Assembly (NCBI GenBank): GCA_043751595.1
Contig: JAYUZR010000030.1
Location: 1 to 48,929 of the forward strand
Origin: Candidatus Berkelbacteria bacterium
GTDB taxonomy: Bacteria > Patescibacteriota > UBA1384 > CAILIB01
Length of the DNA stretch: 48,929 nt
Direction of reading: 5' to 3'
Position 1 is the stretch's first letter; every line of letters starts with the position of its first letter. Positions 5,244 to 48,418 of the stretch are shown here, piece after piece. The translations under genes were made by a program, and so were the position numbers. The notes below the pieces were generated by a model. It was given only the letters and a program-made list of their open reading frames with translations. It was not told the DNA's origin and ran no database searches.

Positions 5244-5268
5244 CCTGGTACATTCGGGCACGTATGCG

Positions 5269-5487
5269 AATTCGGATGCGCCCGTTGCTTCGCAACGTGC
5301 TCGTCTCCTCGCTCGCAAGCGTTTCCTCGAGATATCCTGCCTTCGGCAGGATATAACTCTCCTCGCTCGCTCACAACAAAACAAGTAAACTTGTTTCTAC
5401 AATTCGGAGGCGCCCGTTGCTTCGCAACGTGCTCGTCTCCTCGCTCGCAAGTTAGTCATGCCTACGGCATACTAACGTTGCTCACTC
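5269..5487 (+). repeat. Array of three hairpin units upstream of tRNA-Ser, including a 51-bp direct repeat (5269-5319 / 5401-5451, 1 mismatch)
   Basis: Units start at 5274, 5329 and 5406; each ends in TCTCC-TCGCTCG. Confidence 0.85.
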
Positions 5488-5575
5488 GGAGAGATCGCAT
5501 AGTGGTCTAGTGCAGCATCTTGGAAAGGTGCCGTACCGAAAGGTACCGAGGGTCCGAATCCCTCTCTCTCCGCCA
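5488..5575 (+). tRNA. tRNA-Ser(GGA)
   Basis: GGAGAGA/TCTCTCC acceptor stem, GCATC-TTGGAAA-GGTGC anticodon arm, long variable arm GTACC-GAAA-GGTAC, discriminator G, encoded CCA. Confidence 0.95.
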
Positions 5576-5611
5576 AGATAAAGGACACCCCCTGGGGGTG
5601 TCCTTTATCTT
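5575..5611 (+). terminator. Perfect 18-bp inverted repeat directly after tRNA-Ser
   Basis: AAGATAAAGGACACCCCC-T-GGGGGTGTCCTTTATCTT. Confidence 0.7.
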
Positions 5612-5647
5612 TGATGGGGATGGATGGGAAAGGACTCCTGCGAAGCT

Positions 5648-5720
5648 AGGGTTCGCCTGCTCAATTCCCTTTGAACGAAGTGAAGAGCAGTGCAGAGCGA
5701 AGCGAATGCAATCCCTCTCC
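5648..5720 (+). repeat. tRNA-downstream element, copy 1
   Basis: 5648-5690 is 35/43 identical to the reverse complement of 48248-48290. Ends with AATCCCTCTC, a copy of the tRNA-Ser 3' T-stem. Confidence 0.8.
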
Positions 5721-6302
5721 CTAATCCGGATGACTCGCCCGAAACTCCTCAATAATCTTTTGATTCTTCTCAAAATCTTCTCGCTGCTTTTGCTGGACTG
5801 CCTTCGTGCGCTCAGAGCTACTCATTCTATCGTATGGATCGGCAATGTGATGAAGAATATCCTGCCTGCAAAGTAACATCACCAAACAGAGCGCAATCCA
5901 GGCGGAAACATTCATAATGCTTTTCGTAGTCTTTGTCAGAACCGGCTTCACACTGATACCGATACGAATAAAAGACCAGCGATCAATTACATCGTCTGCA
6001 TGAGGGTCATCAGCCGAATCAGTAGTCCAGATGGCTATCAAGATAAACACCAGGTAATACAGCGTGCGATACGAAGGGATTTCGTGATAGAGCCGGTAAA
6101 GAACAGCCAGATATCCAACCACTAAAAGTAGTAGTCCCACCCTCCAGAGCCACTTAAACCGCTGCTTATCAGCAATTTCTAGTTCACGAGCAGCAACCAC
6201 TTCATCGTAGGTTTCCACGCCATCATCAGGACCGCTTGCGGCAGTTAATACTGCTGGAATCCCGGCATCAGTTGCTTTAATTTCGTGTTCGTCTTGCATC
6301 AT
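5721..6302 (-). CDS. Hypothetical membrane protein (~3 TM), last gene of the kinase-dcd-dcd-CYTH operon
   Basis: Hydrophobic segments; ATGA overlap with the CYTH gene. Confidence 0.7.
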   Translation of the reverse strand: MMQDEHEIKATDAGIPAVLTAASGPDDGVETYDEVVAARELEIADKQRFKWLWRVGLLLLVVGYLAVLYRLYHEIPSYRTLYYLVFILIAIWTTDSADDPHADDVIDRWSFIRIGISVKPVLTKTTKSIMNVSAWIALCLVMLLCRQDILHHIADPYDRMSSSERTKAVQQKQREDFEKNQKIIEEFRASHPD

Positions 6303-47157: not shown

Positions 47158-48132
47158 ATGAAACAGGAAGTTGTGATTGCGGTCGACGCACTCACAGAAA
47201 AGAACGGCCCAGAAGCGGTTAACGCCGTACAAAAGTACGCCCGAGAACACCCACTTGTGGGATTCCAGGTGTTTGGACCAACCGCTCTTATCACGAGCGT
47301 ACTATTTCCGGGAAATGTGCAGCTAATCGGCACTAGCGAAGTTGTCACTATGACGGATTCCCCGCGAGAAGGCTGGAAGAAGCAGGAATCACCAACCCTC
47401 AAGGCACTAAAAGCAGTGGCTGGAGGCGGAGCTCATGTCTGTGTAAGTTCCGCAAATACCGGAGCGCTCACCCTCGCGGTAAGCACGCTTCTCAAGCGCA
47501 TCTTTGGGATACTTCCACTGGCAAGCTTGATTCCCAAAGAAGATGATGGATATACAGTGCTACTCGACACGGGTAGTACGACTAACATCACTCCGGATAA
47601 GATGGTTCTTATGGGGTTAATGGCGCAAGTCCTCTTCCCCGAAGAAGCCAACCTTCGGGTAGGAATGCTAACTATCGGTACTGAGATAGGAAAAGGTACA
47701 GAGTTTCAGAAGGCAGCATTCAAGTTGTTGCAAGCGGTTTTCCCAGACATCTTCAATGTCGAGCCAGCTGGAGTTCTCTCAGGCAGCGAGGTGGATATCG
47801 CACTAGCAGACTGCCTCACTGGTAACATGTTTGTGAAAAGTGCCGGCGCCATGCTGGCACTTATTGCAGACATGATCGAAGAAAAGATTCCGAGCGTGAC
47901 CGCAACGGCTGATGAACTGGCAGTAAAGAGGAGAATACAGCGATTGATCGGCAACCGCTTTCAAATCAATAGAATGGGCGGAGCCGTGTTTCTTGGTACA
48001 GAGATTGGTACAGCAGTAAAAACCCACGGGGGATCCACCGAAGCTATGTGGATTGGAGCGCTAAAGACTGCCCACTTCGCGGCTGAGCTAAACTTGCCGA
48101 GTAAATTGGCGGAAATCAAAAAGAAAATCTAG
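47158..48132 (+). CDS. plsX: Divergent phosphate acyltransferase PlsX
   Basis: IAVDA, SANTGA, LLDTG, IGTEIGKG, TGNMFVK, GGAVFLG and VKTHGGS; SD AAGGAG. Confidence 0.8.
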   Translation: MKQEVVIAVDALTEKNGPEAVNAVQKYAREHPLVGFQVFGPTALITSVLFPGNVQLIGTSEVVTMTDSPREGWKKQESPTLKALKAVAGGGAHVCVSSANTGALTLAVSTLLKRIFGILPLASLIPKEDDGYTVLLDTGSTTNITPDKMVLMGLMAQVLFPEEANLRVGMLTIGTEIGKGTEFQKAAFKLLQAVFPDIFNVEPAGVLSGSEVDIALADCLTGNMFVKSAGAMLALIADMIEEKIPSVTATADELAVKRRIQRLIGNRFQINRMGGAVFLGTEIGTAVKTHGGSTEAMWIGALKTAHFAAELNLPSKLAEIKKKI

Positions 48133-48150
48133 ACCAAAGAAAGGAAAAGA

Positions 48151-48181
48151 AGATGGTCCCCGTGAAAGCGGGGCCATTTTT
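48151..48181 (+). terminator. Terminator after plsX
   Basis: ATGGTCCCCG-TGAAAG-CGGGGCCAT followed by a T run. Confidence 0.65.
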
Positions 48182-48196
48182 GATTCTTACGTCTAT

Positions 48197-48300
48197 GCCC
48201 CAGCGGGAAGTCGTCACTTCGCTCCTTAACCGCTCTGAGCTACGCTGCTGTTTTTCGCTTTGCTCAAATGGAATTGAGCAGCTGAACCCTGCGGGTTCAA
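48197..48300 (-). repeat. tRNA-downstream element, copy 2
   Basis: Shares the 43-nt core with 5648-5690. Bounded by an inverted T-arm copy (GCGGGTTCAA, 48291-48300) and TCCCGCTGG (48200-48208). Confidence 0.8.
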
Positions 48301-48306
48301 CCTTGC

Positions 48307-48344
48307 CCAACATAAAAGAGCCTTGAAAGGCTCTTTTATGTTGG
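48307..48344 (-). terminator. Perfect 17-bp inverted repeat overlapping the tRNA-Glu CCA
   Basis: CCAACATAAAAGAGCCT-TGAA-AGGCTCTTTTATGTTGG. Confidence 0.7.
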
Positions 48345-48418
48345 TAGCACCAGCGGGATTTGAACCCGCGATCTCTTGGATGAGAACCAAGTGTCCTAGA
48401 CCACTAGACGATGGCGCC
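48342..48418 (-). tRNA. tRNA-Glu(CTC)
   Basis: GGCGCCA/TGGTGCT acceptor stem, CTTGG-TTCTCAT-CCAAG anticodon arm, GCGGG-TTCAAAT-CCCGC T-arm, CCA. Confidence 0.95.

Follow-up and report, generated by a model that had tools for sequence, protein, structure and literature searches.

Fold-back copies of tRNA 3' ends form a tRNA-linked family in a Candidatus Berkelbacteria genome and resemble the tRNA-linked repeats of Escherichia coli

tRNA-linked repeats (TLRs) have been known in Escherichia coli since 1978. In the 48,929-nt contig JAYUZR010000030.1 of a Candidatus Berkelbacteria bacterium (assembly GCA_043751595.1; contig C30, the whole of which is hereafter called the window), we found that the two tRNA genes, tRNA-Ser(GGA) and tRNA-Glu(CTC), are each followed on the same strand by a structured unit of ~110 nt, in which the tRNA 3' end is copied twice, first as a degenerate antisense arm and then as an interrupted sense arm. 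Units of this plan lie behind other tRNA genes of the genome and behind tRNA genes of other genera, and, judging from their sequence, they appear to be the Patescibacteria counterpart of the E. coli TLR design.

In E. coli, 22 TLRs occur at ten loci, and in every one the last 18-19 bases are the same as those that end the tRNA or rRNA gene upstream of it (PMC8144298). The rRNA-linked units rrA, rrB and rrF lie between two terminators, are made when the first is read through and are then processed, and the rtT RNA is described as being released from the tyrT transcript (PMC8144298). In the parts of PMC8144298 drawn on here, the function of TLRs is given as not known, and the only functional data on them are the in vitro binding of Hfq and CsrA by rrA, rrB and rrF. 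We located no account of TLRs outside E. coli in the literature, a statement on which the supplementary figures of PMC8144298 on conservation may bear.

Compared with this definition, the units of the window share the position directly downstream of a tRNA gene on the same strand, and the family resembles the E. coli repeats in lying right behind a tRNA gene (in E. coli also a 5S gene), after a first terminator (a putative one here) and sometimes in tandem (PMC8144298). As in TLRs, the 3' end of each unit repeats the 3' end of the upstream gene; the identical stretch measures 10 and 9 bases in the two window units and 16-18 bases in seven other units of the genome, against 18-19 bases in the parts of the E. 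coli account consulted (PMC8144298). The family as a whole thus shows this feature, and the two window copies show it in part. A candidate for the first terminator, the hairpin T1, is present at both window loci, and no second terminator of the window units was found. The layout of the insert hairpins differs from that in E. coli, and the host belongs to Patescibacteria.

A family of units linked to tRNA genes

The host assembly comprises 976,403 bases in 62 contigs and is 97% complete, and the window encodes RpoD, DnaG, ValRS, MurE and PolA, which indicates a bacterium; the closest relatives of its RpoD are Patescibacteria (83%) and Candidatus Berkelbacteria (~67%) proteins, in keeping with the Patescibacteria (CPR) group. 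tRNA-Ser(GGA) at 5488-5575 (+) and tRNA-Glu(CTC) at 48342-48418 (-), both with an encoded CCA, were predicted by aragorn and matched the Rfam tRNA model at 48.8 and 64.7 bits, respectively; Rfam at gathering thresholds and aragorn found these two tRNAs and nothing else in the window. At both loci the order is tRNA, the palindromic hairpin T1 and then the shared unit, which starts 44 nt past the 3' end of tRNA-Ser and 36 nt past that of tRNA-Glu, and the tRNA end is separated from its downstream copy by ~135 nt. The earlier note on this DNA, made from the window sequence, had reported 35/43 identical bases between 5648-5690 and 48290-48248 in the same orientation relative to the tRNAs, and a hand count gave exactly this figure. 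The layout that it had described, a T-arm 5' half, an insert and the tRNA's own 3' end, was confirmed, with 10 (Ser) and 9 (Glu) cognate bases. The antisense arm had been overlooked there, and its presence makes the unit a tRNA-end fold-back rather than an interrupted tRNA half.

In the complete plan of a unit, the degenerate antisense copy begins right after T1, its first bases complementing CCA and its last ones the T-loop, and a short turn leads over to the sense copy. The fold-back covers the last 25-30 bases of the tRNA. The sense copy is interrupted at the T-loop position by two hairpins, P1 and P2, and resumes after P2, where it takes in the last bases of the T-loop and the 3' strands of the T-stem and the acceptor, while the T-arm 5' half and its complement form a further hairpin, P0.

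To follow this plan through the genome, a covariance model was built from seven units outside the window, with two helices specified, and the genome was searched with it at E<=1. Nineteen matches were obtained, among them the two window units at 29.4 and 23.9 bits. Fourteen of the 19, including both window units, begin 36-60 nt after a tRNA on the strand of that tRNA, whereas ~0.07 tRNA-adjacent matches would be expected by random placement. The remaining five comprise two second units of tandem arrays (behind tRNA-Val(GAC) and tRNA-Gln(CTG)), one match at 75 nt from a contig end and two orphans (C44:9956-10041 and C22:3939-4004). The Pro-GGG unit, the second Gly-TCC unit and a larger variant behind tRNA-Met were missed by the model and recognised by eye, and many more units of the same plan with other inserts were found when the 230 nt behind all 63 aragorn tRNAs were read. 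The 12-base heart of the core occurs exactly six times in the genome, five times at 61-82 nt and once at 1,759 nt after a tRNA 3' end.

The terminal copies follow the adjacent tRNA. For the 19 units with an upstream tRNA, the 3' part was compared with the terminal 24 bases of all 63 tRNAs, one by one, and the longest exact word in common was taken. The cognate tRNA ranked first in 14 units (with one tie), second in two and outside the top three in three; in one of the two second ranks it stood behind an isoacceptor with the same acceptor stem, and in the other behind a match caused by a nested module. For both window units the cognate tRNA gave the longest exact match. Seven units have 16-18 identical 3' bases, five of them with CCA, and each of the five CCA-bearing units, as well as the Ala-TGC unit, is followed by a second terminator-like hairpin of its own. 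Linkage to tRNA genes throughout the genome and termini that match the adjacent tRNA, both foreseen in the earlier note, were thus borne out.

Insert modules recur behind different tRNAs. Type-A P1 is near-identical behind Ser-GGA, Glu-CTC, Val-TAC, Ser-CGA, Asp and Gly-TCC and in the Gln-TTG orphan, and the types of P1 and P2 combine freely. These observations suit the main rival of the reading that we prefer (set out below), namely that the P1-P2 insert is a mobile or selfish hairpin cassette: a non-autonomous DNA element that enters hairpin loops, chiefly the T-loop of a tRNA-end copy, and is spread between tRNA loci by an enzyme of the host or acting in trans, or by recombination between units. 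The same explanation is favoured by a full P1 module nested inside another (C14:7731-7858), by the two orphan units, by the insert of the Arg-CCT unit, which resembles the Glu-CTC insert of another genus, and by tRNA-Ala(TGC), which carries different insert types in two genera. The fixed spacing of 36-60 nt from the tRNA speaks against it, and an inserted cassette leaves unexplained the covarying stems and the arms fitted to each tRNA, the antisense arm included. Moreover, neither a target-site duplication nor an empty site was seen. Assembled contigs from four public DNA runs gave no alternative joint at the Ser locus, where one contig covers 5462-6400 without a difference; since this contig may stem from the source sample, it shows merely that the stretch is not a scaffolding artefact.

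The machinery for such movement was also sought. REP/REPIN-type elements are short intergenic hairpin repeats mobilised by RAYT transposases, and the present units are like them in being short, many-copy intergenic hairpin modules common to several loci; they differ in their strict linkage to tRNA ends and in their tRNA-specific arms. In the 97%-complete genome, the Y1 transposase family PF01797 had no match, which places the units outside IS200/IS605 and REP/RAYT as far as a transposase of this genome is concerned, and the sole tyrosine recombinase is encoded on an unrelated contig (C34). On balance, we consider a mobile cassette unlikely. The interpretation in the earlier note, a mobile or recombination element aimed at the T-loops of different tRNAs, therefore stands in its layout, its tRNA linkage and its cognate termini, whereas the mobile character was not shown and the proposed link to arrays upstream of the tRNAs found no support (see below).

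A direct copy of a tRNA 3' part downstream of an intact tRNA gene also recalls integration. At integrase attachment sites in tRNA genes, the 3' part of the tRNA is directly repeated from the T-loop onwards, and integrases leave such repeats behind; on this view the downstream copy would be the leftover attachment-site repeat of an element that once resided in the tRNA gene. The Gln-TTG unit, 1.75 kb from its tRNA with two open reading frames (ORFs) between, and an uninterrupted partial tRNA-end copy after tRNA-Arg(TCT) on contig C22 are what such scars would look like. However, ~19 units share the same structured content and spacing and hold an inverted copy besides the direct one, and a repeat interrupted by an insert at the T-loop is unexpected from a crossover scar. 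The units differ from attachment sites further in their length of ~110 nt and conserved structure, and no integrase or cargo was found between or beside the copies. Integrase scars are among the less likely explanations; this one is already disfavoured, and we regard it as very improbable.

In other genera, the model matched 9 of 60 other genomes at E<=0.01, with 12 matches in total. Six of these sit 45-54 nt after a tRNA, two lie at contig edges, and four are weak and look spurious. Five of the six tRNA-adjacent units end in a copy of 7-18 bases of the tRNA 3' end, and for the sixth the stretch examined stopped before the end of the unit. In a four-contig genome of the same family, 32 tRNAs were examined, and five of them are followed at 100-165 nt downstream by a sense copy of 14-21 bases of their own end, with an antisense copy in front and quite different inserts; in two of the five, T1 and the unit are duplicated precisely in tandem. 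At a tRNA-Asp locus and a tRNA-Asn locus of a same-family genome (L040 and L051 of genome G003), T1 and the start of the unit are repeated exactly after the sense copy, which shows recent tandem duplication through the direct repeats. BLAST with T1 plus the unit gave no match in 40 related genomes, and a pattern of P0 and the start of P1 gave single matches in 5 of 40 other genomes, no more than a reversed-pattern control. Relatives of PlsX, sought in the genome contigs as a way to orthologous loci, were not found.

Parts and structure of the units

In the Ser unit (+ strand), T1 (5576-5610) is a palindromic hairpin rich in G+C, one arm of which is A-rich and the other T-rich, and can be read, from its sequence, as a putative intrinsic terminator. 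A promoter/terminator consensus scan did not call the T1 hairpin at either window locus, probably because the A and T runs pair with each other and the loop is very short. The antisense arm at 5612-5629, the 5' strand of the closing helix S1, repeats the final 18 bases of tRNA-Ser as a degenerate reverse complement; over 17 aligned positions, 12 are identical, three wobble-compatible, one of A-C type and one a transversion. A seven-base mini-hairpin at 5640-5646, recognised in the sequence, stands between the antisense arm and the T-arm half, at the place of the P0 loop in other copies, and is an insertion relative to the other units in the model alignment. The T-arm 5' half (5648-5655), made up of the T-stem 5' strand and the first T-loop bases, starts both the sense arm and the 43-nt core, and it is followed by P1 at 5657-5690, a conserved type-A hairpin module common to at least seven other units of the genome. 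P2 at 5692-5709, supported by the sequence and the model alignment, is a short hairpin in which the loop consists of three purines and purine-purine pairs stand in tandem, and its core is kept across genera and is also present in E. coli units. The 3' part of the sense arm (5710-5721) repeats from tRNA-Ser the 3' bases of the T-loop, the 3' strand of the T-stem and a portion of that of the acceptor; it is exact over 10 bases (5710-5719), two bases short of the tRNA and without CCA. In the minimum free energy (MFE) fold, the antisense arm pairs with 5711-5720.

In the Glu unit (- strand), T1 occupies 48310-48341 and is followed by P0 at 48283-48299, a perfect 7-bp hairpin supported by the sequence, the MFE fold and the model alignment. 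Its 3' strand is the T-arm 5' half of tRNA-Glu (48283-48289), with A at loop position 57, and its 5' strand compensates. The type-A P1 module (48244-48282) and P2 (48210-48229), both recognised in the sequence and in the model alignment, are separated by an extra segment at 48230-48243, which recurs in the nested tRNA-Lys unit on contig C14. The 3' part of the sense arm, at 48197-48209, repeats from tRNA-Glu the 3' strand of the T-stem and a portion of that of the acceptor; it is exact over nine bases (48200-48208), degenerate beyond them and lacks CCA.

Across the family, the T-arm 5' half also follows the cognate tRNA. T-loop position 57 is A in both units whose tRNA has A there (Glu-CTC and Pro-GGG) and G in all 17 others (Fisher's test ~0.006; counted and computed by hand), and the base two before the loop is A in two of the three units whose tRNA has A and in none of the 16 others (~0.02, by hand). 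In the Asp, Glu-CTC and Pro units, a compensating base is found on the other strand of P0. These data support a split copy of the T-arm. Archaeal intron-containing and split tRNA genes include T-loop introns, and they share with the units a T-arm interrupted by extra sequence; they differ in that the units belong to a bacterial host, comprise the tRNA 3' part only, stand beside an intact gene and gave no cloverleaf with aragorn or Rfam. Nothing like a tRNA gene or pseudogene was detected at 5590-5740 even at E<=10.

Structure statistics were obtained from a model-fitted alignment of 25 units from six genomes, and as fitting to a structure favours that structure, the values are to be read with this bias. 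P0 is 91% paired, with double changes in three of five pairs, and P1 is 90.8% paired, with double changes in all six pairs. The covariation score of 0.373 was reached by none of 500 shuffles, which gave 0.145, and pairing dropped to 23-53% when the partners were slid against each other. In units with complete ends, the closing helix is clear in MFE folds (15-18 pairs), and in the window units it is marginal. RNAalifold on a MAFFT alignment of 17 units recovered five pairs of P1 only, a low yield that is explained by an alignment out of register elsewhere. As to P1 itself, type A has two mutually exclusive helices, the long-range stem of the model and a local 6-bp hairpin, and the latter is preferred by RNAfold in most copies; the alternative helices could be a switch or a simple ambiguity.

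The tRNA specificity of the antisense arm is weak but measurable, with a mean rank of the cognate tRNA of 4.9 against 7.0 expected (p~0.02) and the best rank in 4 of 18 units. Among the transitions in this arm, 20 keep a wobble pair and nine do not (one-sided binomial ~0.03, by hand), an excess that hints at selection at the RNA level. The arm is central to another explanation, in which the unit is a cis-acting device: in read-through transcripts, the antisense arm would pair with the tRNA 3' end, or the sense arm with the tRNA 5' strand, and thereby steer 3' processing, quality control or termination, with no role for a free small RNA. In agreement with this, the antisense arm adjoins T1 and often lengthens the palindrome of T1 as far as the CCA end, the antisense arm of the Ser unit is a better match to all 18 bases of the tRNA end than is the eroded sense copy, and the unit is always in cis on the same strand. 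Yet tandem second units and displaced orphans are too distant from the tRNA for such pairing, which would moreover have no need of conserved P1 and P2 loops, and a tRNA, once folded, offers strand invasion a poor target. This role, too, is less likely, and we would call it quite improbable.

Proposed mode of action and relation to E. coli TLRs

The reading that we prefer, and to which we give about an even chance, is that the units are TLRs, that is, tRNA-end fold-backs that act as processed read-through RNA and imitate the cognate acceptor/T-arm helix. RNA polymerase passing T1 would make the unit as the tail of the tRNA transcript. The antisense and sense arms would then pair, and the closing helix would imitate the cognate tRNA's acceptor/T-arm helix, whose 3' strand it would share, so that the enzymes that process tRNA ends could cut out a discrete, stable small RNA, whose conserved P1 and P2 loops may bind some partner. 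With the tRNA gene lying ~100 bases away, gene conversion and unequal recombination with it are possible, and either might maintain the cognate match; the same process may yield the tandem arrays. Here we infer transcription, processing and function from the E. coli precedent, whereas the sequences themselves show the position and strand of the units, their architecture, the cognate 3' match, the covarying hairpins, the tandem forms and the occurrence in other genera. No sigma-70-like promoter was found on the unit strand inside either window unit.

Several results weigh against this proposal. At the level of pairing, the cells of P0 and P1 contain 11 wobble and 18 A-C combinations and so give no sign that RNA rather than DNA is read on this strand, and when antisense and sense arms were compared by duplex energy, no more than 2 of 19 units had their own partner as the best. 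In the window, the fold of the Ser unit was equalled by 16 of 200 shuffles (z -1.6), with the closing helix forming; the closing helix is absent from the MFE fold of the Glu unit, and the Ser antisense arm taken alone fits its tRNA no better than non-cognate tails (rank 6 of 14). Both window units lack CCA and a second terminator and, considering also their short sense copies, are eroded members of the family that may be decaying. The near-identity of P1 modules behind different tRNAs is explained by recent spread at least as well as by selection over long times. Finally, neither CsrA nor Hfq was found in the 97%-complete genome, a further difference from E. coli, and the partners reported for the rRNA-linked units there cannot be carried over.

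The likeness of the units to E. coli TLRs extends to their architecture. In the tyrT-tyrV-rttR locus, too, an antisense arm is followed by a P0-like hairpin and by an insert where the T-loop would lie, and the sense strand has CCA at its end. Within the region of the antisense arm and P0, a word of 11 bases is identical between this locus (L007, 1466-1476, -) and C11:16164-16174 of the present genome, and a 13-base P2 word is identical between L007 1387-1399 (-) and both C35:72251-72263 and C21:45108-45120. With filters off, the best match of our covariance model in the 2.2-kb E. coli locus was the unit in the tyrT-tyrV spacer (13.5 bits; E 4e-4 for the locus). Much of the common sequence stems from the universal T-arm, and the agreement may therefore reflect a common design rather than descent. 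Searched against the whole K-12 chromosome, the model had its best match inside argS, which is spurious, and an nhmmer profile of 19 units gave no match in the E. coli tyrT locus.

The reverse comparison used the Rfam family RF00391 (RtT). Its model matched the Ser unit over its full span with 13.5 bits and E 2.6 on 151 nt, below the cut-off of 45 bits, and this was the one relevant Rfam match at E<=10; no match was obtained in six other loci, nor any genome-wide at E<=10. On their sequence, we file the units as elements that are built, and would work, like TLRs, outside RF00391 and with statistical homology to the E. coli repeats not established. To our knowledge, another RNA of this kind, 3'ETS-leuZ, is not defined by a copy of a tRNA end or by a fold-back. 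This tRNA 3' external transcribed spacer RNA is a sponge of small RNAs, and what the units would share with it is the origin of a functional RNA that is cut from the trailer of a tRNA transcript as a by-product of operon transcription (PMC8144298).

With ~19 units per Mb, the density is about four times that of E. coli, for which 22 units in 4.6 Mb are counted in the part of the account drawn on here (PMC8144298). As the same design recurs at such a density in a 1-Mb genome shorn of most non-essential DNA, an accident is less likely. It is conceivable, although we hold it doubtful, that TLRs are one ancient and widespread class of self-renewing tRNA-end fold-backs, which imitate the cognate acceptor/T-arm helix and whose cassettes move between loci and are re-tailored by conversion. 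If this were true, ~19 units in a Patescibacteria genome of less than 1 Mb would represent an undescribed tRNA-coupled RNA layer or a tRNA-parasitic element. The family provides comparative material beyond E. coli, with several insert types, arms that follow ~15 tRNAs, and tandem, nested and eroded copies, and it makes two ideas testable, namely the unit as an RNA mimic of a tRNA end and the upkeep of its match to the neighbouring tRNA. For annotation, the units account for many blocks labelled as conserved intergenic and for false small ORFs beside tRNA genes.

Upstream arrays and side observations

Arrays of repeats precede both tRNAs of the window, at 5244-5487 (+) and from 48419 to ~48620 (-), and similar arrays precede ~9 tRNA loci of the genome. 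By eye, each array unit consists of a hairpin, a word of 5-7 bases equal to the acceptor 3' strand of the tRNA itself, and a conserved word of 7-8 bases; the hairpin often holds the complement of the downstream mini-hairpin loop. Both flanks of these tRNAs thus carry tRNA-specific copies of the acceptor strand. The earlier note had suggested, from a 6-base complementarity, that the downstream element is the counterpart of the arrays. This suggestion was not supported, as the duplex energies between array and unit were no better than those of shuffled sequences, 28 and 57 of 100 shuffles doing as well, and the presence of an array does not track the type of P2.

The unit behind tRNA-Lys(TTT), at C14:7731-7858 (+) (L005, 632-759), contains a full type-A P1 module in the loop of another P1 module, and a compensated change is seen in its inner stem. 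The orphan at C44:9956-10041 (-) (L006, ~1157-1242) has at its 3' end nine bases of tRNA-Gln(TTG), a gene of the same strand located 1.75 kb upstream. Between the two are a 278-aa ORF without a Pfam match and a 104-aa ORF with a sub-threshold match to Trypco2 (21.8 bits against a cut-off of 24.2), and it looks as if a gene cassette had been inserted between tRNA-Gln(TTG) and its unit. The second orphan, C22:3939-4004 (-), precedes tRNA-Lys(CTT) by ~210 nt; the 1.1 kb upstream of the orphan hold no tRNA, and its insert resembles that of the Arg-CCT unit.

Seven short contigs of 2-4 kb (C10, C17, C18, C29, C50, C52 and C59) stood out in the assembly. Six of them carry Ile/Ala tRNA pairs like those of rRNA spacers, and C18 is an array of 11 tRNAs whose genes lack an encoded CCA. 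Because the seven are unlike each other and unlike the rest of the genome, they probably come from other organisms binned along with it.

Two ORFs touch the units of the window. A convergent 193-aa ORF at 5721-6302 (-), which belongs to no Pfam family, has its stop codon at the last base of the Ser unit. At the Glu locus, a 65-aa ORF with an ATG start (48116-48313, -) spans the entire unit on the same strand and starts inside the T1 hairpin; we take it to be spurious, and it recalls the small tpr ORF annotated within rttR of E. coli.

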